Shown here: positions 45,063 to 61,795 of the stretch, one piece after another
How the letters are laid out: each line of letters starts with the position of its first letter
Position numbering within the stretch: the first letter of the stretch is position 1
Origin: Deltaproteobacteria bacterium
GTDB lineage: Bacteria; CG03; SLGR01; JBDRKX01
NCBI GenBank assembly: GCA_048634875.1
Contig: JAIVZN010000001.1
Coordinates: 3,858 to 67,857 of the forward strand
Length of the DNA: 64,000 bases
Reading direction: 5' to 3'
Notes under the pieces: generated by a model
What the model was told of the DNA's origin: nothing
The model's database searches: none
What the model saw: the letters and a program-made list of their open reading frames with translations, nothing else
Translations under genes and position numbers: made by a program

Positions 45063-45140
45063 CTGGCAGGCCTGGCAGGACTTGAACCTGCAACCCCCGG
45101 TTTTGGAGACCGGTGCGCTAGCCAATTGCGCCACAGGCCT
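45063..45140 (-). tRNA. tRNA-Trp (anticodon CCA)
   Basis: Manual fold: AGGCCTG acceptor, anticodon loop CTCCAAA, T-arm GCAGGTTCAAGTCCTGC, encoded CCA. Confidence 0.85.
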
Positions 45141-45141
45141 T

Positions 45142-45306
45142 TTATCCCTTAATTGACTTATGCACCGTATGCTTTCTACAAAACCTACAGTGCTTCTTTA
45201 ATTCTAACTTATCCTGTCTGTGAAGTTTATTTCTTCTGTATGTATAGTTTCGGCGTTTACACTCCTGACATTCAAGATGCTGAACTATCCTATCCTTTTT
45301 TGCCAT
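45142..45306 (-). CDS. rpmG: 50S ribosomal protein L33 (not in ORF track)
   Basis: [54 protein letters not shown]; zinc-ribbon L33; start overlaps tuf stop (TAATG). Confidence 0.9.
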   Translation of the reverse strand: MAKKDRIVQHLECQECKRRNYTYRRNKLHRQDKLELKKHCRFCRKHTVHKSIKG

Positions 45307-46496: not shown

Positions 46497-46514
46497 ATCT
46501 TCCTCCTCTTTATT

Positions 46515-46570
46515 TCCGTAAAGCGTAAAGCGTAAATCGTGAAGTGTTTTTTTTTACCCTTTACGCTTTA
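46515..46570. repeat. Repeat family C hairpin between tRNA-Thr(GGT) and tuf
   Basis: ccgtaaagcgtaaagcgtaaatcgtgaagtgtttttttttaccctttacgctttactctttacg. Confidence 0.8.
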
Positions 46571-46576
46571 CTCTTT

Positions 46577-46652
46577 ACGACCATGGTGGAGCTGGGAACG
46601 GGATTCGAACCCGTGACCTCATGCTTACCATGCATGTGCTCTACCAGCTGAG
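46577..46652 (-). tRNA. tRNA-Thr (anticodon GGT)
   Basis: GCTGGGATAGCTCAGCTGGTAGAGCACATGCATGGTAAGCATGAGGTCACGGGTTCGAATCCCGTTCCCAGCTCCA. Confidence 0.88.
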
Positions 46653-46660
46653 CTATCCCA

Positions 46661-46712
46661 GCATCATAAACCGTAAAGCGTAAATCGTGAAGTGTTTTTC
46701 TCTTTACCCTTT
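46661..46712. repeat. Repeat family C hairpin between tRNA-Gly and tRNA-Thr(GGT)
   Basis: ccgtaaagcgtaaatcgtgaagtgtttttctctttaccctttacgctttac. Confidence 0.8.
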
Positions 46713-46714
46713 AC

Positions 46715-46788
46715 GCTTTACAACCCTGGAGCGGGTGATGGGGATCGAACCCACATTACTAGCTTGGAAGGCTAGGGCTTTACCACTA
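46715..46788 (-). tRNA. tRNA-Gly (anticodon TCC)
   Basis: GCGGGTGTAGCTTAGTGGTAAAGCCCTAGCCTTCCAAGCTAGTAATGTGGGTTCGATCCCCATCACCCGCTCCA. Confidence 0.88.
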
Positions 46789-46833
46789 AGCTACACCCGC
46801 CTTACTAATTCAAATTTTGCATTTTTCCACCTT

Positions 46834-46919
46834 GGTGGACAGGGGAGGATTCGAACCTCCGTAGGACAACGTCCGACAGATTTACAGTCTGTTGCCTTTA
46901 ACCTCTCAGCCACCTGTCC
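46834..46919 (-). tRNA. tRNA-Tyr (anticodon GTA), long variable arm
   Basis: GGACAGG...CAGACTGTAAATCTG anticodon arm, variable arm CGGACGTTGTCC, T-arm GGAGGTTCGAATCCTCC, CCA encoded. Confidence 0.85.
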
Positions 46920-47002
46920 TCCTCTATATTTTAGGAATATGAGATGAGGTATACGGAACTAGAGAACAAAAAAAATTTTTCCTCATTCCTCATTCCTTCT
47001 AT
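46920..47002. repeat. Degenerate repeat family B copy filling the tRNA-Thr(TGT)/tRNA-Tyr spacer
   Basis: aggaatatgagatgaggtatacggaactagagaac...cctcattcctcattcct shares both arms with the spc-operon copies. Confidence 0.65.
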
Positions 47003-47078
47003 TGGAGCCGATGACAGGAATTGAACCCGTAACCTGCTCATTACAAGTGAGCTGCTCTGCCAGTTGAGCTACATCGGC
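47003..47078 (-). tRNA. tRNA-Thr (anticodon TGT)
   Basis: GCCGATGTAGCTCAACTGGCAGAGCAGCTCACTTGTAATGAGCAGGTTACGGGTTCAATTCCTGTCATCGGCTCCA. Confidence 0.88.
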
Positions 47079-47141: not shown

Positions 47142-47203
47142 TTGCCAAATTTCTTCCAAATTCTTCCAAATTCTTGACAATTATAAATAAATGTATTAAT
47201 ATT
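47142..47203 (+). promoter_or_regulatory. Divergent plus-strand promoter TTGACA-17-TAATAT preceded by three direct CCAAATTCTT repeats; predicted near-leaderless start for the M23 peptidase gene
   Basis: gccaaatttcttccaaattcttccaaattcTTGACAattataaataaatgtatTAATATtttattgttcATG. Confidence 0.5.
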
Positions 47204-47212
47204 TTATTGTTC

Positions 47213-48127
47213 ATGTTAAAAAGTTTTAAAATTTGGTTCAGTAAAAAAATTACAATAATATTTGCTCCAAGCCATGGCAGCAGGTCATTTCATATACAAT
47301 TATCATATCCATTTACAACATTTCTCCTGTTGTTAATTGTATCAATATTTACTGTAGGCGGATATTTTTCAAAGGTTTATATCAGCTATATTCATGCAAT
47401 TGAAGCAAATAAAAAATTAGTTGAAGAGAAAAACCTATATTCAACAAAAGTTGAAGAAACCCTTAATATGCTCCAGAAAGTTAAAAACATTGAAGTTCGC
47501 CTAAAAGGCATGCTTGGGATGAAATCAACAAGAAATATTATTGAAAACTATCATATAGGCGGAGCGCATTCAAAGGATAAAGTAAACCTTCCTATTGAGA
47601 TTAATTCTATCTATGAACAAAACCGTTTTAATTCAAACATAAATGAAGTAAAGAGAGAAACCTGGGAACAGCAGCAAAATATTAAATACATAGAAAATTT
47701 TATTAATAAAAAAAGAAATATGCTTCTGTCCACTCCTTCTATCTGGCCTGTTTTTGGCTATATGACAAGCGGTTATGGCTGGAGAACACATCCCATACTC
47801 AAAAGGAGGGAATATCACAGAGCAATAGATATATACAGCGTTCTTGAAAGGCGTTCCCCAATAAGAGCAACTGCGCAAGGCAGAATAATTGTTGCAGGCT
47901 GGGCAGGTTCATATGGCAAAACAATAATAATAGACCATGGTAATGGATTTTCTACAAGATACTGCCATTGTTCTAAAATACTGGTAAAACAGGGAGAAAG
48001 AGTTGAACATGGACAAATAATTGCATATATCGGGAATACAGGGCTTTCTACAGGGCCGCATCTGCATTATGAAGTATGGTACAGGGGAAAACCTGTAAAC
48101 CCCCTGCGTTTTGTTAAAGAGAGGTAA
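47213..48127 (+). CDS. M23 family (LytM-domain) metallopeptidase with N-terminal TM helix (ORF track begins at TTG 47174; ATG 47213 preferred)
   Basis: HxxxD...HLHYE zinc-peptidase motifs (RAIDIY..., GPHLHYEVW). Confidence 0.85.
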   Translation: MLKSFKIWFSKKITIIFAPSHGSRSFHIQLSYPFTTFLLLLIVSIFTVGGYFSKVYISYIHAIEANKKLVEEKNLYSTKVEETLNMLQKVKNIEVRLKGMLGMKSTRNIIENYHIGGAHSKDKVNLPIEINSIYEQNRFNSNINEVKRETWEQQQNIKYIENFINKKRNMLLSTPSIWPVFGYMTSGYGWRTHPILKRREYHRAIDIYSVLERRSPIRATAQGRIIVAGWAGSYGKTIIIDHGNGFSTRYCHCSKILVKQGERVEHGQIIAYIGNTGLSTGPHLHYEVWYRGKPVNPLRFVKER

Positions 48128-48130
48128 CTT

Positions 48131-48538
48131 TTGAACAAATTAAATAAAAAGATATTCGGTAAAATAGAAACTCTAATCAGTCAGGATACAAAGATAGAAG
48201 GCACAATTGAAGCATCAGGAACACTTAGAATTGATGGAACTGTAATAGGCGGTATCAGTAAGGCTTCAGGCGTTATAATCGGCGCTACAGGAATTATAGA
48301 AGGAAATATTAATGCGCAAGGAGTAAGCCATGCAGGAAAAGTAATTGGAAATATAAATGCTGAATCCTCACTTGAGTTAATGCATGAATCTGTTTTACAG
48401 GGTGACATAAGAACAGCCCAGCTTTCCATAGCTGAAGGCGCTCACTTTGATGGCTCCTGCTCAATGATTAGTGAAAAGAACAATGAAGCATCGGGGTTTT
48501 CCAAAGAAACTCTAGAAACAACAGAAGAACCTACCTGA
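48131..48538 (+). CDS. Bactofilin (DUF583) cytoskeletal protein
   Basis: 135 aa beta-helical bactofilin repeats (GTIEASGTLRIDGTVIGG...). Confidence 0.8.
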   Translation: MNKLNKKIFGKIETLISQDTKIEGTIEASGTLRIDGTVIGGISKASGVIIGATGIIEGNINAQGVSHAGKVIGNINAESSLELMHESVLQGDIRTAQLSIAEGAHFDGSCSMISEKNNEASGFSKETLETTEEPT

Positions 48539-49046
48539 GAAATTCAATAGTTTCATCTATTTTTTCTTTCACGCTTCTATTTTTAACCATATCCTTTGAA
48601 ATTAAAAGATGTTCAATTGTTCGAGAATATTTTAACTCTTTCAAGGATTCACATGCCCTGAGCCTCACTATCTCCTTTTCAGTATTATTTTCTATTACCT
48701 CAATAAGCGGGATTATATTATCCTTATTTGCAATAAAACCAAGTATATCAACTATCCAGAATCTGAATTTCCAGTTTTGCGATACCTTTAATTTCTCAAC
48801 AAGAACAGGAGATACCGCTGTTCCGATATCCATCATCTCAACTGACTCATTCATTGTATTTCTTCCGAGGTAGCCGAGATCATACTCCTTAGCTATTTCT
48901 TCTACTTTTTCTAATACACTTTCCGCTTTTTGCCAGGTCTCTGTATCTATCTTTTTTTTAGGAACAACGGGAATTTTATGAGGCATTCTGACAACGCTGC
49001 AGCCTGATAAAAAAATAATTATTAATAATGTTTTAATGAAAGACAT
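48531..49046 (-). CDS. Putative lipoprotein with HEAT/armadillo-like repeats
   Basis: Signal peptide plus lipobox LSGCS; convergent with bactofilin, 8-nt overlap. Confidence 0.5.
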   Translation of the reverse strand: MSFIKTLLIIIFLSGCSVVRMPHKIPVVPKKKIDTETWQKAESVLEKVEEIAKEYDLGYLGRNTMNESVEMMDIGTAVSPVLVEKLKVSQNWKFRFWIVDILGFIANKDNIIPLIEVIENNTEKEIVRLRACESLKELKYSRTIEHLLISKDMVKNRSVKEKIDETIEFLR

Positions 49047-50044
49047 TTAAATAACTTCTGAGCTTTTATATCTGTAAGAAATGCAACCAAATCACAGGCG
49101 GCCCTCTGAGCTGTCTCATTTTTCAAATACGGCATCTCTTCAATAACAAAATCGCAGTTATCTGTGTAATATTTATACAGGAAAGCTATGATTTCTCTGG
49201 CTTTTTTGTCCCTTTGTGCAACCCGTGGTAATTTATATACATAATCATACAGGAACTGTCTGAGTTCATCAGTTGCGGTCATTACGCCTTCACTCATCTC
49301 AATATGTTTTTTCCCCACGCTTTCTTTTATTACACACTCAAGCATTGTAACTAACCTGCTTTCAAAATTGTGTCCAAGTATTTCACCTGTACCCGCAGGT
49401 AAGTCCTCTTTTGAAATTATTCCCATGTTAAACGCATCATCTATGTCGTGATTAATATACGCAAACCAGTCTGCAAACTGAACAACCTCTCCTTCTATAC
49501 TTGATGCGCGGTTGACACCATCATGGAGACTTACAATACTTAATGTCCCCTTTGAGTGCTGACTGATTCCATCTTTTACTTCACAAGTCAAATTCAAACC
49601 TTCACCATTGTTCTCAATTAACTCAACAATCCTTATACCCTGATCGCTGTGTGCAAATTTAAAAGGAGTCAGTTCGTCAAGAACTTCTTCTCCAATATGG
49701 CCAAAAGGCGTATGTCCAAGATCATGCCCGAGCGCTATAGCTTCAACTAAATCCTGATTTAAATTAAGAGCCCTTGCAATATATCTTGATATTGCAGCAA
49801 CTTCTAATGTATGAGTAAGGCGCGTTCTGAAATCCTCGCCGCTTGTTGAAAGAAAAACCTGGGTTTTATGCTTTAACAGGCGGAAACTCAATGAATGTAA
49901 AATTTTATCCCTGTCTTTCTGAAACTCAGTCCTTACAGAACAAAATTCTTCTTCTCTGCCGCGTCCTTTTGTGAGAGTATTTAAAGTAGCAAAAGATGAA
50001 AGATTTTCCTTTTCCCACTTTTCAATTTTCTCACGGGTGTTCAT
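49022..50044 (-). CDS. dgt: dGTP triphosphohydrolase-like HD-domain protein
   Basis: 340 aa; HD motif (HDLGHTPFGH), dGTPase family architecture. Confidence 0.8.
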   Translation of the reverse strand: MNTREKIEKWEKENLSSFATLNTLTKGRGREEEFCSVRTEFQKDRDKILHSLSFRLLKHKTQVFLSTSGEDFRTRLTHTLEVAAISRYIARALNLNQDLVEAIALGHDLGHTPFGHIGEEVLDELTPFKFAHSDQGIRIVELIENNGEGLNLTCEVKDGISQHSKGTLSIVSLHDGVNRASSIEGEVVQFADWFAYINHDIDDAFNMGIISKEDLPAGTGEILGHNFESRLVTMLECVIKESVGKKHIEMSEGVMTATDELRQFLYDYVYKLPRVAQRDKKAREIIAFLYKYYTDNCDFVIEEMPYLKNETAQRAACDLVAFLTDIKAQKLFKCLSLKHY

Positions 50045-50478
50045 TGCTTTCCCTTTAGATCTTCTAAATTTTTTCTAAAAACATCGCCTTTATCAAAATG
50101 CGGTATTAACTCCTCAGCCATATACATATTATAATCTCCATTAACGCCGCAGCAGAAAACTTCCGCAGATTTACCAAATTCTATCAGGACCTGCCTGCAC
50201 GCTCCGCATGGCAATGAGAGATTCTTATCAGAAGTCACCACTGCGAGTCTCTTTATTTCTCTTTCACCCTCAGAAATTGCTTTTGTAATTGCCACCCTTT
50301 CAGCGCAGATTGTTAAGCCATATGAAGAATTTTCAATATTACAGCCGCCATAAACATTCCCTGAACCACATTCCACGGCTGCACCAACCTTAAAATTACT
50401 GTACGGTTCATATGCCGTTTCCCTGTATTTTACTGCTGTTTCTATTAATTTTTCTTTTGCCATTTCTCCTCCACACAT
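50041..50478 (-). CDS. cdd: Cytidine deaminase
   Basis: 145 aa; CAERVA...PCGACRQVL zinc-binding motifs. Confidence 0.9.
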   Translation of the reverse strand: MCGGEMAKEKLIETAVKYRETAYEPYSNFKVGAAVECGSGNVYGGCNIENSSYGLTICAERVAITKAISEGEREIKRLAVVTSDKNLSLPCGACRQVLIEFGKSAEVFCCGVNGDYNMYMAEELIPHFDKGDVFRKNLEDLKGKQ

Positions 50479-50537
50479 TAGCGCACAAGTTAATTTTTAT
50501 GTCCTAATCTCTTAATCTCGTAATTTCCTAATCGCAT

Positions 50538-51560
50538 TCATTTTATCAGTCTGCCGCATTCTTCCATGACCAGTTTTCTTAATTTATCTTTCTCTTCAGT
50601 CTCCATGAAGGCAGCTTCAACACCATTCATTATAATCTCAACAAGTTCACTTATAGAAATTCCTATCTCCATTGCCTTTTCAAATTCGTATGTTAAATCT
50701 ATTCCGCTTACACCCCTGTCATCTGTGTTTAATGTAACTTTAATGCTACTTGCAATAAATTTTTTTACCGGATGAGTATTATAATCTTTAACAACCTGTG
50801 TATGTATATTTGATGTAAGACATATTTCAAACGGGATTCTTTTTAAAGCCATTTCACGCATTAATTTTTCATCTTCAACAAGTGTAACACCATGCCCTAT
50901 TCTATCAGCGCCTATCTGTACAGCTTCCCTGATATATTCAGGACCTGCTGCTTCGCCTGCATGAATAGTTACAGATACTCCCTCATTTTTGCATATCTGA
51001 ATTGGTTTTTCAAAATCCCTCAGTGGGAATTTATTCTCATCGCCAGCAACATCAATGCCAGAGACACCCTCATTCCTTAATTCCACCGCACATTTTGCAG
51101 CCTGGATTGAATCCTCCAGCGGAGTTCCGCGATACAAACACAGCAGCACCCCGCACTTTATGGGAAATTCTTTTTCACCCTTTTTAACTCCTCTTAGTAC
51201 TGCTTCCACAACATCAGGTATGGGGAATTTTTCAGTTTTCTGAAGCACAGGAGCAAACCTTATCTCAAGATACTTCACATTTTCTTCAGCGCAATCCCTG
51301 CATAATTCATATGATATCCTCTCCTGTGCATATGGGTTTGTCAAAAGCGGGTAAAAGACTTCAAATCTCTTTAGAAAGTCGCTTAAACATTTACAATTAA
51401 TGGACACTCTTACAAATTTTCTCAAATCCTTTACATTGTCAGCAGGCAAAGAAAAATTCTGCATTTTAGCAAGCTCCAAAATCGTAGAAGTTCTTATGGA
51501 GCCATCTAAATGACAATGTAAATCAACTTTAGGTAATTTTCTTATAATTTCCTCTTTCAC
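50538..51560 (-). CDS. add: Adenosine deaminase (GTG start)
   Basis: 340 aa; LPKVDLHCHLDGS metal-binding signature. Confidence 0.88.
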   Translation of the reverse strand: MKEEIIRKLPKVDLHCHLDGSIRTSTILELAKMQNFSLPADNVKDLRKFVRVSINCKCLSDFLKRFEVFYPLLTNPYAQERISYELCRDCAEENVKYLEIRFAPVLQKTEKFPIPDVVEAVLRGVKKGEKEFPIKCGVLLCLYRGTPLEDSIQAAKCAVELRNEGVSGIDVAGDENKFPLRDFEKPIQICKNEGVSVTIHAGEAAGPEYIREAVQIGADRIGHGVTLVEDEKLMREMALKRIPFEICLTSNIHTQVVKDYNTHPVKKFIASSIKVTLNTDDRGVSGIDLTYEFEKAMEIGISISELVEIIMNGVEAAFMETEEKDKLRKLVMEECGRLIK

Positions 51561-51566
51561 TTGTAA

Positions 51567-51700
51567 ATAAATCCTTTATTGAGACCTAAATGATGTATTT
51601 TTTGCGACTTGTGACTTTTTAGTCTCCGGAGCAACAAAATGTATTTTTAGGGCTCGATTATTTTCACCCACTTTTGTGCCGGCGAGCCGGCTTGTCCGTT
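51567..51700. repeat. Repeat family A copy 3 (compact, both halves)
   Basis: taaatcctttattgagacctaaatgatgtattttttgcgacttgtgactttttagtctccggagcaacaaaatgtatttttagggctcgattattttcaccc...; its terminal AAAGGA supplies the SD for add. Confidence 0.85.
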
Positions 51701-51731
51701 CCATGTCTTTTTTGACATTACCAAAGATATT

Positions 51732-52373
51732 TTATCTACGGGATTGATAAATTACGGAAACGACTTTTTCAACTCCTTCATATAATTTTCTGAAATCATT
51801 TCCTTCTTCTGTATCAGGATTAATAAATATTACAAGCATCGGAAGTTTTTTCTTTAACATATCTTTATCATCGAATCCGTATGTCTCTTCCATTTCTTTC
51901 CTTGAAACTAAATGGTCATCAGAACCTGCTTCTATTGCCTTCTGATGACGACGGACATTCCTCTTCCAGCATATATCAAAAGGCACATCAAGATAAACCA
52001 CAATTGCCTGCCGGAGAATCTTTTTTGAAAAATTATTAAGGATGGAATGAACATAATTCGGCCTTGAAAATTCAATAAAAAGAATAGTGTCGGAAATTTC
52101 GGACTCCATTAATTTCAGCACATCTCTATTAACTTCTTTTAAGATGTCATCCCACACCGTATTATCAGTAACTTTGTATCCGCTGTCTTCAGTCAGGCGG
52201 CATTTTCTCCACTGGCCGGTTCTTTCATCTTCCTGAAATATCGCCCACAATTTCGGGAAGTCATCAATCCGGGTAAAATTCTTAAAGAGATTTCCCTCTT
52301 TAAGCTTCTCCACTATACAACGATAAAACTCTGATTTGCCCGAGCCGGGAGTTCCAAGTAAAAAAACAATCAT
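51732..52373 (-). CDS. P-loop NTPase, kinase-like (AAA_33/zeta-toxin/nucleoside-kinase-like), function unknown
   Basis: 213 aa; Walker A LLGTPGSGKS; small kinase-sized protein. Confidence 0.55.
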   Translation of the reverse strand: MIVFLLGTPGSGKSEFYRCIVEKLKEGNLFKNFTRIDDFPKLWAIFQEDERTGQWRKCRLTEDSGYKVTDNTVWDDILKEVNRDVLKLMESEISDTILFIEFSRPNYVHSILNNFSKKILRQAIVVYLDVPFDICWKRNVRRHQKAIEAGSDDHLVSRKEMEETYGFDDKDMLKKKLPMLVIFINPDTEEGNDFRKLYEGVEKVVSVIYQSRR

Positions 52374-53347
52374 CAGTTAAAAATCCTGTTTAAATACTCA
52401 GTCTCTTTTTGCAAAATTTCCTTTGCATTCAACAATTCATTTATTTCTCTTACTGCTGTTTCAACAACAACAATTTCAAGTTTTTTTTCATAGAACTTTT
52501 TTGCGAGACTAATTAAGTTTTCTTTTTTGAGAAACCCTTTTTCATAATAAAGCGGAGGGTGGAATTTTTTTATAACAGGAATATAATCATTAAGATGCAC
52601 TTCATATAAAAGACTTTCAGGTATTTCATCAAAGACCGATTCAGGTGGTTCTGGAATCTTTTTATCTTTATCAACATCAACCCTTGTAAACCAGTGGCCT
52701 ATATCAAAACAATATTTAATATTCATTCCCTTTTTATTAACAGTATTTATAATATCCAGTAGTTCGTTGTTTTCAACTCCGAAACTGTCAAATGCAGTGT
52801 TATTTTCTAAATGAAATACAATATTCCTTTTTTCAGCATAAGGGTATAACTCCTGTAAAGTTTTTACGAGAGATTCTTTTAACATCACAAGATATTCTCC
52901 AACTGCCTGATAGAAAGGTACGGCGCCTGGATGCATCACCAACGATATACAGCCTAACTTAGAGGCAAAATCTATGTATCTTTTCTGTAGTTCAACTGCA
53001 ATTTTCCTGTCAGATTCCTGAAATGCACATGTTGAAGCAGCTGCATATGTATAAGGTAAATGAAGTGAAATTGTCATATCAGTATTTATTGCATATTTTC
53101 CTGCTTTCTTTATCTCATCATCGCTAATTTCAAGAAACGGATTCGGCACACCTCCATCTAATTCTATATGAGTCAACCCTATTTCCCTGCCTACCTTAAG
53201 CTGATTTATTATATCCCTTTTTGCCCGTATCTGGACGCGGGCGTCCATATTATACACAGGAAGTTTCCCGTCTTTGAAAAGTATTCTTTCCTCATCATTT
53301 AAGAACGAGGCTTCAAGCATATTTGTAAAATTTCTTCCAATTCTCAT
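52373..53347 (-). CDS. Xylose-isomerase-like TIM-barrel protein (sugar phosphate isomerase/epimerase family)
   Basis: Metal-ligand pattern HLPY...MHPG...HLENN...DIGHW...HLND typical of AP_endonuc_2 fold; ATGA overlap with PfkB gene if start at 53347. Confidence 0.6.
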   Translation of the reverse strand: MRIGRNFTNMLEASFLNDEERILFKDGKLPVYNMDARVQIRAKRDIINQLKVGREIGLTHIELDGGVPNPFLEISDDEIKKAGKYAINTDMTISLHLPYTYAAASTCAFQESDRKIAVELQKRYIDFASKLGCISLVMHPGAVPFYQAVGEYLVMLKESLVKTLQELYPYAEKRNIVFHLENNTAFDSFGVENNELLDIINTVNKKGMNIKYCFDIGHWFTRVDVDKDKKIPEPPESVFDEIPESLLYEVHLNDYIPVIKKFHPPLYYEKGFLKKENLISLAKKFYEKKLEIVVVETAVREINELLNAKEILQKETEYLNRIFN

Positions 53348-54291
53348 CTTGTGATTTTTATATTCTCCATATAAGAAATATTGCGCAAACAGCATAACCG
53401 CTTACTTACTTCCTTTAAATCCACATTCTTTAACACATCTACACTGAACCCTTCTACTGTAAAAGATGCCACCACGCTACCAACGGCAACTGCGGACCGT
53501 ATAGTATCAGGATTTACATTATCCGCCGAAGCAAGGTATCCCATAAAACCACCGGCAAAACTATCCCCTGCGCCTGTAGGATCAACTACATTTTCCAGAG
53601 GAATAGAAGGCGCTGAAAAAACCTGAATTTCATTTTCTTTGCCTTTATAAAACATCGTTACCCCATATTCGCCCTGTTTAACTATTATAACTTCTGGGCC
53701 CCATGTAAGAATCTTACGGCAGGCTCTCACTAAATTTACTTCCTCCGCTAATTGCCTTGCCTCAGCATCGTTTACTAAAAGAAAATCGGTGATTTCTAAA
53801 ACTTTAAGTAAATCGTCTCTTTTACTCTCAATCCAGTAATTCATTGTATCCGTAGCAATTATACCAGGATTTTTCATCTCTTTAGCAACTTTTAGCTGAA
53901 TTACAGGATCAATATTTGCCAGAAAAAGATAATTTATCTCCTGCTGATAAGGGAAAAGCCGGGGGTTAAAGTCAGCAAAAACATTAAGTTCTGTTTTTAA
54001 AGTATGAGCAACATTAAAATCAAAATCATACCTTCCCTGCCATAGAAAAGTCTTCCCTTTTTCTTTTTTTATGCCCTGTGTGTCTATGCCTCTTTCATTT
54101 AATGAACTTATATGTTCGGGAGGAAAATCTTCTCCTACCACACCTACCATACTAGCCTTAGAGAACAAACTGCAGGCATAGGAAAAATATACTGCTGACC
54201 CGCCTAAAGAATCTTTTCTGCTTTCAAAAGGCGTTTCAATATCATCCAGGGCGACAGAGCCAACTACTAAAACTTTATTTTCTTTACTCAC
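53344..54291 (-). CDS. PfkB/ribokinase-family sugar or nucleoside kinase
   Basis: 315 aa; DPTGAGDSFAGGF ribokinase signature 2, N-terminal GG dipeptide region. Confidence 0.8.
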   Translation of the reverse strand: MSKENKVLVVGSVALDDIETPFESRKDSLGGSAVYFSYACSLFSKASMVGVVGEDFPPEHISSLNERGIDTQGIKKEKGKTFLWQGRYDFDFNVAHTLKTELNVFADFNPRLFPYQQEINYLFLANIDPVIQLKVAKEMKNPGIIATDTMNYWIESKRDDLLKVLEITDFLLVNDAEARQLAEEVNLVRACRKILTWGPEVIIVKQGEYGVTMFYKGKENEIQVFSAPSIPLENVVDPTGAGDSFAGGFMGYLASADNVNPDTIRSAVAVGSVVASFTVEGFSVDVLKNVDLKEVSKRLCCLRNISYMENIKITR

Positions 54292-54299
54292 TGATTTTT

Positions 54300-54380
54300 G
54301 CCTGTAAGGCGTTAAAAAAAAGTCGTTTTAATAGACTTTTTTAGCCGAGCACACTTGTTATAGCAAGCTCGGCCACTACA
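54300..54380 (-). terminator. Tandem hairpins after MTA phosphorylase gene; second is a rho-independent terminator
   Basis: Minus sense: GGCCGAGCttgctataacaagtgtGCTCGGC, then AAAAAGTCtattaaaacGACTTTTTTTT. Confidence 0.6.
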
Positions 54381-54382
54381 TT

Positions 54383-55255
54383 TTACTTTAGATACTTTCC
54401 AACTAAAATACCCAGATCTTTTTTCATATTTTCATCTATCTTTTCAGGCGCAGTCATAATTGCATTCTTCAGAGCTTCATTACAACTACATCTGCTCAGT
54501 TCTTCTTTAGTTAACTCGGGGATGAGCCTACGCAGGATTTCTTTTGCATGTCCTGCATTTTCCAACAACTGTTTAACCACCATTTCTACAGTAACAGCAC
54601 CATGTTCTGGATGCCAGCAATCATAATCAGTAACCAGCGCCAGTGTGGCATAACAAATTTCCGCTTCCCTGGCAAGCTTGGCTTCAGGCATTGCAGTCAT
54701 ACCTATAATATCAACGCCCCAGTTTCTATAAATCAGCGATTCTCCGAGAGTAGAAAACTGCGGGCCCTCCATGCAGATATAAGTTCCGCCGCCATGAACT
54801 TTCAACCCGTCTATCCGGCAAGCTTTATAAAGTTCATCGGAGAGAACAGGACATACAGGATTAGAAAACCCTATATGCGCAACCATTCCATTGCCAAAAA
54901 AAGTAGATGCCCTGTTTTTTGTGAAATCAAAAAACTGATTTACAACTACCACATCACCAGGAGCAATATTTTCTTTCATACTGCCTACTGCACTTAGAGA
55001 TATTATCTTACTGCATCCTAATTTCTTTAAAGCAAAGATGTTTGCCCTGTAATTAACCCCTGAAGGCGTATAACAATGCCCCCTGCCGTGACGGGCAAGA
55101 AATGCAACCTCCACTCCTTCTAACTCGCCTACTATAATACTATCCGAAGGACTACCAAAAGGCGTATCAACTACAACTTCCCTGATATTTTTAATGCCGT
55201 CTAATTGATAAAGGCCGCTACCGCCAATTACAGCTAATTTAACTTCTTCTTTCAT
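54383..55255 (-). CDS. mtnP: S-methyl-5'-thioadenosine phosphorylase (PNP family 2); start likely MKEEVKLAVIGGSG
   Basis: AVIGGSGLY..., PNP/MTAP fold with C-terminal conserved block; ORF-track start 55309. Confidence 0.8.
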   Translation of the reverse strand: MKEEVKLAVIGGSGLYQLDGIKNIREVVVDTPFGSPSDSIIVGELEGVEVAFLARHGRGHCYTPSGVNYRANIFALKKLGCSKIISLSAVGSMKENIAPGDVVVVNQFFDFTKNRASTFFGNGMVAHIGFSNPVCPVLSDELYKACRIDGLKVHGGGTYICMEGPQFSTLGESLIYRNWGVDIIGMTAMPEAKLAREAEICYATLALVTDYDCWHPEHGAVTVEMVVKQLLENAGHAKEILRRLIPELTKEELSRCSCNEALKNAIMTAPEKIDENMKKDLGILVGKYLK

Positions 55256-55523
55256 TTTTACTCTCTGTAAAATAGTCCAGTGTATTTTTGAGGTTTTCAA
55301 CAAATTCACCTAAAAAGTCTTCAGATACTGTCATAAAATTTCTGATGTAACTGTTTTCCTCACCCATGCGGGGACGGCTCTCGGTTATTTTTACAAACCT
55401 GCCATTTTCGTTTTGCTTTACATCAAAGAAAAAAGTTTTACCCTTGTCTGTCTTAAACCTGTAAGACACTAATACATTATCCCTGTTTTCTTCCATCTTT
55501 CCCTCCTGTCTCTTCAGCTTCAT
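55239..55523 (-). CDS. Pur-alpha-like nucleic-acid-binding protein (DUF3276-like)
   Basis: 94 aa; YRFKTDKGKTFFFDVKQNENGRFVKITE resembles bacterial PUR repeat proteins. Confidence 0.45.
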   Translation of the reverse strand: MKLKRQEGKMEENRDNVLVSYRFKTDKGKTFFFDVKQNENGRFVKITESRPRMGEENSYIRNFMTVSEDFLGEFVENLKNTLDYFTESKNERRS

Positions 55524-55605
55524 TGTAAAATGAAAATTGTAAATATTAAATTTTAAATTTTCTTATTTTGTCTATTCTTTAAATTTACAATCTTTAATTT
55601 TCAAT

Positions 55606-56913
55606 TCAACATTCTTTGAATGTTGCTGCTTTTTCCATATCCATAATAAGTTTTGAAAACACTTCTAATGACTCGGCAAGTGTCACTCCACTTTTCCTTG
55701 TCTTGCATTCAGCCGCCCTGTAATGTCCACCGCCTGTAATCTGTTCTTTGTTATTATACTTTTCTACTAAACGCTTTGCTAAATTAGAGCATATCTTACC
55801 TGCATGTATGTAATCATCCGTACCCCTGATAGAAAAATGTATTCCTCCGTCTAATTCTCTGTTTACCATTATAAATAATACTTCTCTATCTATGGATTCT
55901 TCTTTTAATTTGTTTAAATATACCGAACCTGCCATAGGCATAAGTAAAACTCTGTATCCTAAAAACAAATACACATCGGTAGTTCCCAGTGTTGTAAGAA
56001 GTGTGATGCTGGAAAAACTTTCAATAGTTTTTTCCCAGTCCTTCCTGAAATATTCATAAATCAGGTTTACCCTGTACCTGTCAATTGTGTTATCTATAAA
56101 ATCATGGAGATTCTTCCAATCAAATCTTTCGCAGTATTTCTCCATAACCAGAAAACTAAATTCACTCTGATTGATATCTTTTAATTCATCATGCCTGTCA
56201 TTGTAAAAATACTGAAATCCGCCACCGCCCAGCGCAAAATACAACTCTGTTATTTGATTTAAAAGTGTTGTCTTTTCTCTCTGATTTACCTCAAACATAG
56301 TCGGGTATGAATCTATTTTTTTTATCAAGTTTTTAAATTGTTCCTCAACCTTTTCTTTGTAAAAAGCACTAACATATTCAGATACTATATCGGTTGCAGG
56401 TTCAACTGCCCAATCTCCCTTCAATCCTACAAGCGCGAGGAAATCATCATACTTTTCTCCTTTTCCAAGATAGGTCATCAGCATATGCGCAAGGTATGAA
56501 GCCGAACACATTTTATAAGATATCGTATTGGGATTTATCAACAAACATTTTTTAATCTCCCCAATTGGCGGATGGTGATCTATTACAAGGAATTTTTCTA
56601 CTTTATCCACATATTTATCATAATATTCCATTGTTCCTTTATCAGAAACAATAACCATATAATAATTATCTTTCTTTAATTCATCATTTAACTGGCTCTC
56701 TGCAAGCTCGTAAGTTGCAGGCAATTTTACCTGAGCCCTGCCTCCCATCATCCGAACCAGCCTCTTTAGTATACAGCCGCTTGACAATCCATCAGGGTCA
56801 TCGTGCGTAAAAATTAAAACTTTTCTGCCTTTAATTTCTTTAAAAGTCTCTGCTGCTGAAATCCAGTTATTCTCTTTAAACTCTTTTATTACAAAATCTT
56901 TATACGACATCAC
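55606..56913 (-). CDS. DHH/DHHA1 phosphoesterase (NrnA-like nanoRNase/pAp phosphatase family)
   Basis: 435 aa; DHH motif (VIDHHP) and C-terminal GGGH DHHA1 motif. Confidence 0.75.
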   Translation of the reverse strand: MMSYKDFVIKEFKENNWISAAETFKEIKGRKVLIFTHDDPDGLSSGCILKRLVRMMGGRAQVKLPATYELAESQLNDELKKDNYYMVIVSDKGTMEYYDKYVDKVEKFLVIDHHPPIGEIKKCLLINPNTISYKMCSASYLAHMLMTYLGKGEKYDDFLALVGLKGDWAVEPATDIVSEYVSAFYKEKVEEQFKNLIKKIDSYPTMFEVNQREKTTLLNQITELYFALGGGGFQYFYNDRHDELKDINQSEFSFLVMEKYCERFDWKNLHDFIDNTIDRYRVNLIYEYFRKDWEKTIESFSSITLLTTLGTTDVYLFLGYRVLLMPMAGSVYLNKLKEESIDREVLFIMVNRELDGGIHFSIRGTDDYIHAGKICSNLAKRLVEKYNNKEQITGGGHYRAAECKTRKSGVTLAESLEVFSKLIMDMEKAATFKEC

Positions 56914-56946
56914 TCTTTACTCTTTACGCTTCACGCTTTTACGCAT

Positions 56947-58257
56947 TTAATTAATTACTTCATAGATCAAAGATGGCGGTTCTACTTTTTTCTCACTAAA
57001 CTCCAGTGAACTCAGATAATCCATGGCAACCCGGCTCATATCAGCAACTTTTGATGAATATAAGCAGGCAACCGCCTCTCCAACTGAAACCATGTCTCCT
57101 ATCTTTTTATAGACTTCTATCCCTGATGTATTGTCTATTTTTTCTCCTACCCGCTCTCTTCCCGCACCGATAGTTAGAGCGCACATGCCAATACTTCTTG
57201 TATCTATTGATTTAATAAATCCCGCTACAGTGCTTGTTACTTCAAATTTATATTTAGCCGGCTTTAATAAGTTATCCGGTTCATCCGGGACCTCTGCAGT
57301 TCCCCCCTGTTCAGCTATCATCTGACGGAATTTTTTCAGGGCTTTTCCGTTACTTAAATTCTCCTTAGCCATCTTTTTAGCTTCGCGGGTATCGCGAGCT
57401 GCATCCCCCATTACAAGCATTCTTGAAGCCAGTTCAATTATTACTGTTTTTATATCCTCAAACCCTTCCTCTCCTTTCATTATCCGGATAGCCTGTTTGA
57501 TTTCCATGCCATTTCCTATTACACGCCCGAGCGGCTGGCTCATATCAGAGATTATAGCTGCCATCTTCCTTTTATAGGATTTCCCAATGCTTATCATGCT
57601 TTCTGCAAGTTTCCTGGCATCTTCAAATTCCCTCATAAATGCCCCTGAACCGGTCTTCACATCGAGAACCAGTCCATCTGCGCCTTCAGCAATTTTTTTA
57701 CTCATTATGCTTGCAGATATAAGGGGAATGCTGTCCACTGTTGCTGTAACATCTCTCAAAGAATACATTTTCTTATCAGCAGGGGCAATATTTTCAGTCT
57801 GTCCAATCATTGCAACACCAATCTTTTTTAACTGCTCCAAAAATTCATGGGGAGTTAAATCAACCCTGAAGCCCGGTATTGATTCTAATTTATCAAGGGT
57901 GCCGCCTGTATGGCCTAAACTTCTTCCGCTCATCATAGGTACCACCACACCAAATGAGGCAACAAGGGGCGCAAGAGTAATTGATACCCCATCCCCTACC
58001 CCGCCTGTTGAGTGTTTATCTATGGCTTTTCCTCCTGTCTCACCCAAATTTATTTGCTCCCCCGATTCCACCATAATACTTGTAAACTCATAAAGTTCCT
58101 CAGTATTCATTCCTTTAAAATAAACTGCCATTAAAAATGCTGACATCTGATAGGGAGGAACTTTCCCATTTAAAAAACCCTCCACCATAAACTGCAGCTC
58201 CCGATGCGACAGGGACAAACCCTCTCTCTTTTTTAATATTATATTATAAGTATTCAA
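56947..58257 (-). CDS. pdp: Pyrimidine-nucleoside (thymidine) phosphorylase
   Basis: 436 aa; DKHSTGGVGD phosphate-binding signature. Confidence 0.9.
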   Translation of the reverse strand: MNTYNIILKKREGLSLSHRELQFMVEGFLNGKVPPYQMSAFLMAVYFKGMNTEELYEFTSIMVESGEQINLGETGGKAIDKHSTGGVGDGVSITLAPLVASFGVVVPMMSGRSLGHTGGTLDKLESIPGFRVDLTPHEFLEQLKKIGVAMIGQTENIAPADKKMYSLRDVTATVDSIPLISASIMSKKIAEGADGLVLDVKTGSGAFMREFEDARKLAESMISIGKSYKRKMAAIISDMSQPLGRVIGNGMEIKQAIRIMKGEEGFEDIKTVIIELASRMLVMGDAARDTREAKKMAKENLSNGKALKKFRQMIAEQGGTAEVPDEPDNLLKPAKYKFEVTSTVAGFIKSIDTRSIGMCALTIGAGRERVGEKIDNTSGIEVYKKIGDMVSVGEAVACLYSSKVADMSRVAMDYLSSLEFSEKKVEPPSLIYEVIN

Positions 58258-59035
58258 GTAATTTTCTGATAAATATTTTAAATTTTTCCTGAGCCATTTG
58301 AGTAGTTTTGATAACTTCCTCGTGGGATAATGGACTGCCTGTAATACCTGCAGCCATATTTGTTGTCATGGATAATCCTAACACCTTAATTCCTAAACTA
58401 TTTGCAACAATAACTTCAGGCACTGTTGACATTCCTACAATATCTGCCCCTATCTTACGAGCCATTCTTATCTCAGCAGGTGTTTCATAAGAAGGGCCGC
58501 TCATAGCTAAGTATACACCCTCTTTTATTTCCATATTAAGCATACTGGCAGTCTGATGCGCAAGTTCTCTTAATTTACTGTTATAAGCATCAGTCATATC
58601 AATAAAATCAGCACTACCTATCAAAGGATTGGCGCCCATCATATTTATATGATCGGAAATAACAACAATATCTCCTGGCAAAAAATTTTCATTCACTGCT
58701 CCAGTAGCACTTGTAACAATTAATTTTTCTACTCCAAGTGCAGCCATAACTCTTACAGGAAAACAAACTTCCCTGATAGTATAACCTTCATAATAATGCA
58801 CCCTTCCTGAAAGAGCTACTATATCTACACCTGAAAATCGCCCTGCTACAACTTCCCCTTTGTGACCCTCTACAGTTAATGTAGGAAATTTTGGTATCTC
58901 TTCAAATTTAATTGTAACAGAATCCTTAAACTCATCTGTTAAATCTCCAAAACCGCTACCAAGTATTATTCCTGTTTTTGGTTGAACTTTTATCCCTGAT
59001 TTAATTTTTTCTAATGCTTCTAATACTTTATCCAT
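58244..59035 (-). CDS. punA: Purine nucleoside phosphorylase (PNP family 1, trimeric PunA type)
   Basis: 263 aa; GIILGSGFG...VALSGRVHYYEG...MSGPSYETPAE motifs. Confidence 0.88.
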   Translation of the reverse strand: MDKVLEALEKIKSGIKVQPKTGIILGSGFGDLTDEFKDSVTIKFEEIPKFPTLTVEGHKGEVVAGRFSGVDIVALSGRVHYYEGYTIREVCFPVRVMAALGVEKLIVTSATGAVNENFLPGDIVVISDHINMMGANPLIGSADFIDMTDAYNSKLRELAHQTASMLNMEIKEGVYLAMSGPSYETPAEIRMARKIGADIVGMSTVPEVIVANSLGIKVLGLSMTTNMAAGITGSPLSHEEVIKTTQMAQEKFKIFIRKLLEYL

Positions 59036-59292: not shown

Positions 59293-59524
59293 GAGTGAAT
59301 CTGTAGAATAGAGAATTGGCGTAGTAGTTTAGGTTAAGCCTATTTGTTTCTGCCCCTTTCGTCTGGCAGTGCCTCAATATCTTATCCATGCTCTATCTCC
59401 AACTCCCCCTCATCAAACCATGCAGGAAGTTCTCCTTCACACGGCTTTCCGATAACCACTCGTCTAAAAGCTTTCACTATTTAGCCACTTTCTATTGGTA
59501 GTTAAATAATATATCCCCAACACC

Positions 59525-59773
59525 TTATACAGAATAACGGTCTGGATATTTGTTAAATCCAAATCCTTTCTTCTGTTTGCGTTTTTGTATAAAACGTCTA
59601 ACTTTATTCTCTGTGTAATATCGGAGTTTACCAAACCATTTTGAGGAATTTCCTTCAATGAAGTAGTTAGCCCACCCTCTTATTACAGGATTAAGCCTTG
59701 AAACAATTACCTCTGCCTTTTCTGGTATTCGGTGATTGGTTATCTTTCTTATCCTGTTTCTGATTACACTCAT
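59525..59773 (-). pseudogene. Group II intron maturase (X/GIIM) domain in a different frame from the RT ORF; no En domain
   Basis: 82 aa; LNPVIRGWANYF hallmark; separated from RT ORF by a ~45-nt frame change. Confidence 0.75.
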
Positions 59774-59818
59774 AGCTTTAGCTGATGGAAAGGATATGAT
59801 ATACCTTATCTTCTTTCT

Positions 59819-60769
59819 TTAATCATATACCTTCTTAAAACTAAAGCCAAGAAAGGTGAATTTGTCTTTCTCCATATCCAGTATTTTTGTCTTCTCCTTA
59901 TTTAGCTTTAAGTTTAATCCCTTAATTACTTTAATTAAGGTCTCCCATATTTCCTGTGGATACCTACAAGATAGAATGACAAAATCATCTGCATACCTTA
60001 TGAGATGAGCAGCAAGTTTGGATTCATATCTTTTCTTCCAGATTTTATCTAACTCATTAAGATAGATATTCGCCAGAAGAGGCGATATTATCCCTCCTTG
60101 TGGAGTGCCAGATATGTTATTTCTTAAGATTGCCTTTTCACTTACTACTCCTGCTGTTAGCCATTGTTTTATTAGCCTGAGAATGTTCTTATCACATACC
60201 CTTTTAGCTATTAGTTCTAACAAACGGTTATGGGATATAGTGTCAAAGTATGAGCTTAAGTCAGCGTCAACTACATATCTATAGCCCCTATTCAATAGCC
60301 TTTTAATTATCTTCAAGGCTTGATGGGCTGAACGCTTCGGTCTAAATCCATATGAACAATCCTGAAATTCAGCTTCAAAAATAGGTTCTATTACTATCTT
60401 TACTGCCATCTGTGCCACTCTATCCTTGACAGTAGGAATTCCTAAAGGTCTTTTAGTTTTATCAGGTTTGGATATATAGACTCTTTTGACCTTGTCGGGT
60501 CCATAAACCTTCTTCTTTAGTTCTCTTTGGATTCCTTTAAGAAATTCTTCTACCCCCATTTGCACAATCTCTTCAATCGTTTTGTCATCTATCCCTGCAC
60601 ACCCTTTATTACTGCAAACCCTTCTCCAACTCTCCACAAAAACATCCCACCGATAGACCTTATCATACAGAGTATAAAAACGCTTTACCTCCTTTCGCTT
60701 TGCCTTTAGATATAGCCCCCTCTGAAATTCCCGAACCTTTTCTCGGGGAGTTAATAGCCTTTTTGGCAA
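59819..60769 (-). CDS. Group II intron reverse transcriptase (RT domain; ORF terminates before maturase domain)
   Basis: 316 aa; ...PQGGIISPLLANIYL..., IRYADDFVIL, GFSFKK. Confidence 0.9.
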   Translation of the reverse strand: MPKRLLTPREKVREFQRGLYLKAKRKEVKRFYTLYDKVYRWDVFVESWRRVCSNKGCAGIDDKTIEEIVQMGVEEFLKGIQRELKKKVYGPDKVKRVYISKPDKTKRPLGIPTVKDRVAQMAVKIVIEPIFEAEFQDCSYGFRPKRSAHQALKIIKRLLNRGYRYVVDADLSSYFDTISHNRLLELIAKRVCDKNILRLIKQWLTAGVVSEKAILRNNISGTPQGGIISPLLANIYLNELDKIWKKRYESKLAAHLIRYADDFVILSCRYPQEIWETLIKVIKGLNLKLNKEKTKILDMEKDKFTFLGFSFKKVYD

Positions 60770-61795
60770 TCTCCCAGTCCTTCCTTCGGGGGCATAGTTA
60801 ATAATGCCCCTTCACTCTGTCTTAGTTTTGTTGTCTCTTGACTTCATAAGTTCGCCTAAAAAACAGCCATTTAGGCTGTTTTTCTTTATGTCTCCGTTTA
60901 TGAGTATATCCGACCACCTTAATAACCTCCTTTGACTTCGGATTTCCCTTATACAAAGAAGCCTTTCGTTATCAAGGCTCTCCCAAGTTCCCTTCGTAAT
61001 CTTTCTCAGCATACCGCCCCTGATACCCCGAGTAGAGTCACCCCTTCTTACTCCTGTTAATCCAAGATGACTGTCGGGCTTCCCTCAAACATGAAAAGGT
61101 CGCCTCTACTTCTTAATGAACTAACGAGTCTACTTATAGGTTCATTCACATTACGGTCTGCTGTTTTGCGTCTCCCAACTAAATCGGGATTTGTCGAGTG
61201 GCTAAAGCTTCGAGATTAGTCCCTTATCTTCACTCCTCGCTACATAACCGAACAGGAAATTATTATGACTGACACCTTTCAGTCAGTTAGATTACAAAGA
61301 GCTTTTCTTGACATGCCATGTCCCTTTCTTATTATTGTTATATAATACATAGTTTTTAATTGCTTATCAAATTTTTTACCAACAATATCTCCGACAATAT
61401 AAATCAATGGGACAATATATACTATTTTAATCAAAGTTATTTTAGCACAAATTTTTCTTATGGGCAAATATGAGTCTTATCCCAAGACTGGATGGGTCAA
61501 GATATTTATTATTAAGGGTATGTTCAACATTACGAAAGATATTTGAAATATATGAGCAAGCGAAAAGACGATGTTGGCAATTACAATTAGAGTTTCAATA
61601 ATTGGAATAGTTGTTAATAACTTTTTGATATACAGGGATAAGGGGGATAAAAGGACAAGTGCATCCAAAAGTCTGGGTTTTGCCTGAATATATAGGGAAA
61701 TCTGGTTAGTACGGTGTAATTCCTTGACTTTTATTCCAAAGAAAGAAATATAGGATAGATTTTTTCAGCTAAAAAGCTGATTTTGGCGGAAGCCA

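Follow-up and report, generated by a model that had tools for sequence, protein, structure and literature searches.

What do a xylose-isomerase-like TIM-barrel protein and a small P-loop kinase contribute to a gene cluster for nucleoside recycling? The question is raised by a 64,000-nucleotide stretch of DNA from a Deltaproteobacteria bacterium (assembly GCA_048634875.1, contig JAIVZN010000001.1, positions 3,858 to 67,857), referred to here as the window. According to the open reading frame (ORF) listing and the translations, eleven consecutive minus-strand genes fill the positions from 49022, the stop of a dGTPase gene, to 59035, the start of a purine nucleoside phosphorylase gene (PNP). By the family membership of its genes, the region is a conserved cluster of a type already known, predicted to recycle nucleic acids to nucleosides and further to bases. 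Scavenging of nucleosides and nucleic acids is regarded as a principal lifestyle of many uncultured lineages from the subsurface, and the steps from degraded nucleic acids to usable nucleotides and sugars are in these lineages still filled with 'hypothetical' genes. The present analysis delimits a two-gene module, TIM-barrel protein and P-loop kinase, at fixed positions in the conserved cluster.

The original prediction for this locus had placed a nucleoside cluster on one strand at 49022-59035. All ORFs on its list were found within these limits, and the list holds eleven genes instead of the ten announced in its title. Three neighbours, a PfkB-family kinase, the TIM-barrel protein and the P-loop kinase, had been proposed as a functional trio. 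The conserved core is the TIM-barrel protein together with the P-loop kinase, not this trio; the PfkB kinase is accessory.

Conservation of the cluster and its core

A genome scan with one genome per species yielded 75 loci encoding a homologue of the TIM-barrel protein, all from uncultured lineages. The hosts are Elusimicrobiota/Endomicrobiia, Sumerlaeota, Ignavibacteria, Hydrogenedentota, Caldiserica, Lindowbacteria, a Spirochaetia bin, unclassified bacteria and many Hadarchaeota. The eleven window proteins were mapped with phmmer onto six-frame ORFs of these loci, and the counts refer to the 73 loci in which TIM was matched. They are lower bounds, because many contigs are short. The full order is PNP-PyNP-[TIM2-Ploop2]-DHH-(PurA)-MTAP-(PfkB)-TIM-Ploop-ADA-cdd-dGTPase. 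It is repeated in metagenome-assembled genomes (MAGs) of Elusimicrobiota, Sumerlaeota, Ignavibacteria and Caldiserica. Dozens of independent MAG contigs belonging to several phyla share this order, far more than chance would produce. A lack of conservation in relatives, which the original prediction had allowed to count against itself, was not observed; the order is strongly kept across phyla.

The P-loop kinase gene adjoins the TIM gene in 61 of the 73 loci. MTAP is present in 33, in all of them immediately upstream of (PfkB-)TIM-P-loop, and DHH in 30. ADA follows the P-loop kinase in 23 loci, PfkB occurs in 19 and PyNP in 11. The dGTPase gene stands at the cluster end in 10 loci; cdd and PNP were each detected in 8, and PurA in 4 as well as in one further metagenome locus.

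In the reverse scan, made on metagenome contigs and centred on the kinase, the TIM gene lay directly upstream of the kinase gene in 33 of 39 decidable loci. The remaining six kinase loci are without TIM; cdd lies directly upstream in three of them and a Clp1-family gene downstream in one. Without TIM, the kinase is kept beside cdd, ADA or MTAP in three loci. The Walker A motif starts at most 30 nt from the TIM stop in 81 of 112 TIM-to-kinase pairs, and the two coding regions thus usually abut or overlap. In the window, TIM stop and P-loop start share the sequence TGATG, PfkB stop and TIM start overlap as ATGA, and the three genes are set off from their neighbours by spacers of 92 and 171 nt. 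Co-transcription and translational coupling of the proposed trio are supported for the window, whereas the unit conserved elsewhere is TIM and P-loop kinase, with PfkB present in a minority of loci. A second, divergent TIM/P-loop pair follows PyNP directly in 17-18 loci, with all catalytic-looking residues kept.

The pair stands alone in Hadarchaeota. Its neighbours there (IlvE, ThiC, a class V aminotransferase and a metallophosphoesterase) were considered as a functional link and rejected as synteny among close relatives. The pair might also belong to no common pathway, being an unrelated housekeeping module (e.g. DNA repair and a nucleoside monophosphate (NMP) kinase) that hitch-hikes in a syntenic block. 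The absence of nucleoside genes around the pair in Hadarchaeota and several bacterial clades would suit such a module, as would the position of the cluster beside core ribosomal and RNA polymerase genes. However, in at least four phyla the pair is inserted at two identical places, behind MTAP and behind PyNP, it is duplicated within the cluster, and its two genes are translationally coupled. Hitch-hiking is considered improbable.

Enzymes of nucleic acid metabolism recur as partners. A Clp1-family polynucleotide-kinase-like protein (PF16575, E 4e-35) is encoded in 11 genome and 6 metagenome loci, and in a Spirochaetia contig the TIM gene is followed directly by Clp1 (L054). A true RecJ is located upstream of the cluster in some variants (e.g. 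L086). In four loci from one bacterial clade the arrangement is HAD-LigA-TIM-P-loop, with LigA directly upstream of TIM. The fallback of the original prediction, a nucleoside kinase and an Nfo-like enzyme in nucleic acid turnover, fits better than its pentose pathway. Clp1 was located inside or just after the cluster at L017:10170-11414, L024:5834-6292, L080:11765-13381 and L096:986-2933. Its gene almost always follows one for a conserved protein without Pfam match of approximately 110-150 amino acids (234 in L096).

The TIM-barrel protein

The TIM gene (52373-53347, minus strand) encodes an MJ1311/Nfo-like barrel of the xylose isomerase fold (PF01261, E 2e-23), a putative metallo-phosphoesterase of 324 amino acids. 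The start was set at M17 (ATG at 53347); the homologues all begin with MRIGRNFTN. Homologues bear Elusimicrobiota names, and the bacterium behind the window is taken as Elusimicrobiota-like. The family is compact and well delimited: among 1.84 billion representatives at 50% identity, it comprises only 13 clusters at E ≤ 1e-30 and 54 at 1e-10. Its members, from bacteria to archaea, share 46-77% identity with the window protein, and the mean column identity is about 59%.

Some divergent homologues have no adjacent kinase, in Lindowbacteria and relatives (L051, L055, L056, L062) and as second copies in Hadarchaeota (L065-L067). The Lindowbacteria copies adjoin genes of the tricarboxylic acid cycle, and the histidine of the HLND motif is replaced (IQIGD). 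These homologues may have a different function. An apparent fusion to another domain in Lindowbacteria (L055) was rejected, the long ORF being a high-GC artefact.

The best solved sequence relative is MJ1311 (PDB 3WQO, 1.5e-13); Art22 ranks second, ahead of several endonucleases IV. MJ1311 has been described as the endonuclease IV homologue of M. jannaschii (PMC2770678). The top NCBIfam matches are CbiR (NF041277) with 31.3 bits and Nfo (TIGR00587) with 30.6 bits, both far below their cutoffs of 105 and 129.65. Scores for epimerases and isomerases culminate in fructoselysine 3-epimerase with 27 bits (cutoff 305) and IolO with 15.5 bits (cutoff 300), and no curated NCBIfam equivalog of either kind was passed. 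The CbiR model is also the best-scoring one for six of the ten nearest proteins outside the family. CbiR belongs to the same AP endonuclease 2 superfamily and hydrolyzes a small-molecule phosphodiester at the 3'-oxygen of a nucleoside, freeing the 3'-hydroxyl (PMC7733943). Unlike CbiR, the TIM protein scores far under the model cutoff, belongs to a sharply separate family and has no cobamide genes beside it in any locus mapped.

The sequence of E. coli Nfo was checked against 1QTW, and its zinc ligands were paired with TIM residues by HMMER and hhalign. Near Nfo H69, the hhalign alignment was offset by three residues from those that HMMER gave for three further Nfo structures, and the HMMER pairing was used. 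Eight of the nine Nfo zinc ligands align with TIM residues that are invariant in 38 bacterial and archaeal sequences: H96 (Nfo H69), H139 (H109), E181 (E145), D215 (D179), H218 (H182), H251 (H216), H263 (H231) and E296 (E261). The TIM-barrel fold and the Glu-Asp-His-Glu metal site of PF01261 isomerases and epimerases are both present. Ketose epimerases use only this E/D/H/E subset; the equivalents of H69, H109 and H231 belong to the trinuclear centre of Nfo. The MJ1311 structure, work of Uechi and colleagues in 2014, reportedly shows the zinc residues of Nfo without the DNA groove.

The TIM protein shares with Nfo and MJ1311 the xylose-isomerase-like barrel and, by alignment, eight of the nine trinuclear zinc ligands. 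In contrast to Nfo, it remains under the nfo cutoff, lacks a counterpart of D229 and has a kinase as partner. Its model also contains about 30 extra residues between strands 1 and 2, folded into three helices that carry the invariant D35, Q39 and K43. The fold alone does not discriminate between the chemistries; the sequence does so somewhat better. Phosphoester hydrolysis is favoured over isomerization because eight of nine Nfo ligands are kept and the nearest relatives are of the CbiR/Nfo kind. The TIM protein is probably a metal-dependent phosphoesterase akin to endonuclease IV, MJ1311 and CbiR, and the sugar-phosphate isomerase proposed originally is not supported.

The P-loop kinase

The kinase gene (51732-52373, minus strand) encodes 213 amino acids of an orphan family. 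The Walker A motif (G7-S14) reads GTPGSGKS in the window. The family invariants further comprise R35-x-D37-D38-F-P at the end of strand 2, E101-x-x-R104 (E101-F-S-R104 in the window) and R138-N-x-x-R142 (R138-N-V-R-R142). Two invariant blocks, TxDGGY and DDHLVSREEMExTYxxDD, are specific to the family.

Pfam matches are weak across the members: AAA_18 in 34, AAA_33 in 26, dNK in 19 and KTI12 in 18 of 39. The window protein reaches 24.9 bits with KTI12 (cutoff 22) in a partial alignment only, and 29.7 bits with the PSTK model TIGR03574 (cutoff 290). A profile of the family finds PSTK first (8e-6), a dNK-family kinase next (4e-4) and then UMP-CMP kinase. Walker A, the aspartate after strand 2 and the RxxxR motif all align with PSTK, and the hallmarks of PNK/PSTK-type hydroxyl kinases are present. 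In contrast to PSTK, KTI12, dNK and TMPK, no family model is passed convincingly, and the DDFP motif and the two blocks are its own. This motif set is typical of kinases phosphorylating a hydroxyl group; the protein is accordingly termed a predicted ATP-dependent hydroxyl kinase.

In 27 metagenome loci the kinase domain is located behind a second, dNK/TMPK-like P-loop kinase domain. Neighbours of these tandem fusions are uninformative. The fusion family (L136-L162, e.g. L142:7332-8687) has about 440 amino acids and stems from a high-GC lineage; the identity of 35-38% applies to its domain of the window kinase family.

Possible functions of the pair

The pair possibly constitutes a previously unrecognized two-enzyme step common to several uncultured bacterial phyla and Hadarchaeota, either in the salvage of 3'- or cyclic nucleotides or as a phosphopentomutase bypass; the chance of this is put at a little under one half. 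In a narrower form, a phosphoesterase and a hydroxyl kinase would together relocate phosphate on nucleosides, nucleotides or oligonucleotide ends. Judged by motifs, ligands and gene context, this is a tentative reading with roughly one chance in three.

A mechanism for phosphate relocation can be proposed as follows. Nucleotides and nucleosides are predicted to be supplied by the RecJ-like DHH nuclease, the Pur-alpha-like single-strand binder and the dNTP triphosphohydrolase. Their interconversion and cleavage would fall to the two deaminases and the three phosphorylases. The TIM enzyme would hydrolyze a sugar-O-phosphate ester, leaving a free hydroxyl; candidate groups are a 3'-phosphate, a 2',3'-cyclic phosphate or a 3'-linked ester on nucleotides or short oligonucleotide ends. 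3'-Phosphate and cyclic groups would stem from metal-independent cleavage of RNA or DNA. The P-loop kinase, with an aspartate as general base and an RxxxR lid, would then phosphorylate the 5'-hydroxyl. Products may re-enter salvage as 5'-nucleotides or feed the DHH exonuclease, which would depend on 5'-phosphate. The two paralogous pairs may serve different substrate classes, purine and pyrimidine or ribo and deoxy. The PfkB protein would be an add-on nucleoside kinase of the adenosine type.

Phosphate relocation would jointly explain the Nfo/CbiR-like centre, the kinase motifs, the coupling and the duplicated pairs. It would also explain the TIM-less kinase beside cdd, ADA or MTAP, the tandem-kinase fusion and the nuclease and Clp1 partners. 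Several points weigh against it. The hhalign probability for the Nfo alignment is only 60%, and the ninth ligand, D229, pairs with the non-conserved K261. The TIM protein keeps E181, D215, H251 and E296, the residues used by isomerases and epimerases, and may therefore have isomerase chemistry. PSTK, dNK, NMP kinases and gluconate kinase all lie at about the same distance from the kinase, which makes its substrate a guess. The embedded pair represents two orphan families without a characterized member. Nucleoside genes are missing around the Hadarchaeota pair, and pentose phosphates would suit a phosphatase coupled with a kinase just as well.

A pentose phosphate route would let the kinase phosphorylate (deoxy)ribose-1-phosphate at O5 and the TIM protein remove the 1-phosphate, yielding (deoxy)ribose-5-phosphate. 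This would amount to an ATP-consuming bypass of phosphopentomutase, or to a PhnP/PhnN-like sequence towards phosphoribosyl pyrophosphate, with the two pairs serving ribose and deoxyribose. PhnN is a P-loop ribose-1,5-bisphosphate kinase, and the combined chemistry of a kinase and a phosphoesterase fits. Each pair directly follows a phosphorylase gene, pair 1 MTAP and pair 2 PyNP, and the fusion of two kinase domains might reflect two phosphorylations in a row. Neither a mutase nor an aldolase is encoded in the cluster: as originally claimed, Pfam and NCBIfam gave no deoB or deoC there, nor among the other scanned ORFs of the window. Both are also absent from the precomputed Pfam annotations of two related cluster-bearing loci, while the phmmer locus maps contained no deoB/deoC query. 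However, there may be genes for PGM/PMM-type mutases elsewhere, and the route wastes the energy of phosphorolysis. It leaves the recurrent Clp1, RecJ and LigA partners as well as the stand-alone Hadarchaeota pair, which has no phosphorylases nearby, unexplained. Such a route is rather unlikely.

Another proposal is a split Pnkp that heals strand ends. The TIM protein would act as 3'-phosphatase/3'-diesterase or apurinic/apyrimidinic endonuclease and the P-loop protein as 5'-hydroxyl polynucleotide kinase, preparing strands for ligation in repair or for digestion by DHH/RecJ nucleases. The pairing of kinase and phosphoesterase is a hallmark of T4 and bacterial Pnkp. T4 Pnkp, Clostridium Pnkp/Hen1 and mammalian PNKP resemble the present pair in coupling a P-loop hydroxyl kinase with a metal phosphoesterase. 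They differ in that TIM and kinase are separate proteins, the phosphoesterase is a TIM barrel and not of the HAD or calcineurin-like fold, and polynucleotide substrates are hypothetical. The Nfo ligand set, the PNK/PSTK-type motifs, the four HAD-LigA-TIM-P-loop loci and the adjacent RecJ-like nucleases and Pur-alpha single-strand binder are in line with end healing, and the stand-alone Hadarchaeota pair would suit a housekeeping role in repair. However, the Clp1-family polynucleotide kinase in the same clusters would bring the number of 5'-kinases to as many as three. The invariant surface of the P-loop kinase is rich in acidic and aromatic residues. Further points against end healing are the kinase beside cdd without TIM, its fusion to a dNK/TMPK-like domain, the reported absence of a DNA groove in MJ1311 and the restriction of the LigA link to one clade. 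End healing by the pair is thus regarded as unlikely, to a similar degree as the pentose phosphate route.

If the two-enzyme step holds, in either form, the pair would provide the first small-molecule function in nucleotide metabolism for a trinuclear centre of the endonuclease IV type. Once the activities are assigned biochemically, two orphan families would gain an annotation and the endonuclease IV/xylose isomerase superfamily a wider known chemistry; the metabolism of Elusimicrobiota, Hadarchaeota and related phyla could also be reconstructed better. The literature searched for the cluster, for PDB 3KD6 (see below) and for kinase/TIM pairs in RNA repair gave nothing usable.

The PfkB-family kinase

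The PfkB gene (53344-54291, minus strand, GTG start) is an accessory member of the cluster. Its product passes the Pfam gathering score (PF00294, E 3e-24, 86.3 bits versus 25.8), and the GG and DPTGAGD motifs are visible. It resembles PDB 3KD6 from Chlorobium tepidum over the full length (1.5e-82). This entry is reportedly titled a nucleoside kinase with AMP bound; 3KD6 itself has no established function in the sources consulted. The next solved relatives are the nucleoside kinase MJ0406 (2e-10), the nearest characterized one, and human adenosine kinase (5e-6). No NCBIfam equivalog was passed by the PfkB protein; NF041164 gave 53 bits against a cutoff of 450. At about 50% identity the family has over 8000 members, with copies from Anaeromyxobacter and Nitrospirota standing alone in unrelated housekeeping contexts.

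The original prediction had the PfkB protein phosphorylate a pentose-1-phosphate, the TIM protein isomerize the (bis)phosphate and the P-loop kinase add a phosphate on the way to central metabolism. The translational coupling of the three genes in the window and the four isomerase-type ligands of the TIM protein would agree with it. However, the PfkB protein stays far under the cutoffs of both ribose-1-phosphate kinase models (NF041134, 29.6 bits, cutoff 500; NF053626, 49.2 bits, cutoff 330), and only its C-terminal ATP region aligns with them; its role as ribose-1-phosphate kinase is not supported. The gene is missing from 54 of the 73 loci and belongs to a family of housekeeping-like, stand-alone kinases, and the extra invariant histidines of the TIM protein match Nfo. 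A furanose phosphorylated at C1 has no free carbonyl for chemistry of the xylose isomerase type. The known ribose-1,5-bisphosphate isomerases are of the e2b2 fold. Neither such an isomerase nor a RuBisCO or ribulose-1-phosphate aldolase was seen in the cluster, the related loci or the other scanned window ORFs. Archaeal pentose-bisphosphate pathways are similar in that phosphorylases adjoin a PfkB kinase and the cluster has no mutase. They differ in the points just listed: the PfkB protein fails the kinase models and is optional, e2b2 isomerase and RuBisCO are missing among the scanned ORFs, and the TIM ligands are of the Nfo type. Conservation and coupling, on which the pathway was built, stand; the assignments of kinase and isomerase do not, and the route is judged highly improbable.

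Further genes of the cluster

Six cluster genes score above the cutoff of curated equivalog or subfamily models in Pfam and NCBIfam, while the PfkB kinase, the AP_endonuc_2 TIM barrel and the P-loop kinase are assigned at superfamily level only. All genes described below lie on the minus strand.

The three nucleoside phosphorylases recognized by the original prediction are borne out, each above its cutoff. The purine nucleoside phosphorylase of the inosine/guanosine type (PNP, 58244-59035) matches NF006054 with 354 bits (cutoff 218). A pyrimidine-nucleoside (thymidine) phosphorylase (PyNP, 56947-58257) reaches 538 bits with TIGR02644 (cutoff 409). The MTA/purine nucleoside phosphorylase of the MTAP family (54383-55255), with the start taken at M19, gives 312 bits with TIGR01694 (cutoff 275). 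Between PyNP and MTAP, a DHH/DHHA1 phosphoesterase (55606-56913; PF01368, PF02272) is encoded. Formerly regarded as NrnA-like, it finds its closest solved relatives in archaeal RecJ/GAN proteins (PDB 5x4h, 5ghr, 6tvv); the match to the archaeal RecJ model NF053576 (8.5e-19) is below cutoff. The adjacent small protein (55239-55523) was rightly called Pur-alpha-like: it matches PF04845, DUF3276, Pur-alpha in PDB 8chu (E 1e-9) and Borrelia 3nm7, and is predicted to bind single-stranded DNA or RNA with its Pur-alpha repeat.

Downstream of the P-loop kinase, an adenosine deaminase (ADA, 50538-51560; TIGR01430, 297 bits, cutoff 216) and a cytidine deaminase of the tetrameric type (cdd, 50041-50478; TIGR01354, 135 bits, cutoff 113) are located. 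The cdd stop overlaps by 4 nt with the start of the dGTP/dNTP triphosphohydrolase gene (49022-50044; NF002327, 418 bits, cutoff 393), whose product contains the Pfam domains HD and HD_assoc. PADLOC matches are confined to generic domains of dGTPase and ADA, and a defence island was rejected; TIM protein, P-loop kinase, PfkB kinase, DHH protein and phosphorylases had no match to its defence models. A promoter and terminator scan produced no signal exceeding shuffled expectation.

The deoCABD/cdd/add genes of E. coli and the pdp-deoB cluster of Bacillus are similar in co-locating purine and pyrimidine phosphorylases with cytidine and adenosine deaminase. They possess phosphopentomutase and deoxyribose-phosphate aldolase, whereas the window cluster has neither. 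The latter contains in addition MTAP as third phosphorylase, dGTPase, the RecJ-like DHH nuclease, the Pur-alpha protein and the TIM/P-loop pair, with PfkB and Clp1 as optional members of the cluster type. The scanned ORFs of the 64-kb window yielded no deoB, deoC, rbsK, e2b2 isomerase or RuBisCO; those outside the cluster belong to cell-shape, ribosomal, RNA polymerase and proline genes.

Surroundings of the cluster

Downstream, the cluster is followed directly, on its own strand, by five genes for tRNAs (Trp, Thr, Gly, Tyr, Thr; 45064-47078, minus strand). Positions 15000-46500, also downstream and on this strand, encode L1, L10, NusG, S4, SecY, adenylate kinase, methionine aminopeptidase and RpoA. 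By size and position only, ORFs of 1240 and 1373 amino acids fit rpoB and rpoC, and two of 396 amino acids a duplicated tuf. Positions 47174-49046 contain genes for an M23 peptidase and a bactofilin on the plus strand and a minus-strand ORF resembling a HEAT-repeat lipoprotein, which overlaps the 3' end of the dGTPase gene by 25 nt.

A group II intron (59303-61281, minus strand) is located immediately upstream of PNP. Its domains V/VI match at 59303-59449 (36.7 bits, slightly under the gathering score), and D1-D4 match RF02003 at 61146-61281. Two ORFs share the intron-encoded protein, one for the reverse transcriptase (59819-60769) and a separate one for the maturase C-terminus (59525-59773), suggesting a frameshifted or decaying copy. 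The GC content of the window is about 37%. A plus-strand ORF with a signal-peptide-like N-terminus starts at 61907 and continues past the window end (64000); it explains why the GC content jumps to 0.47 and the GC skew reverses over the final 2 kb.

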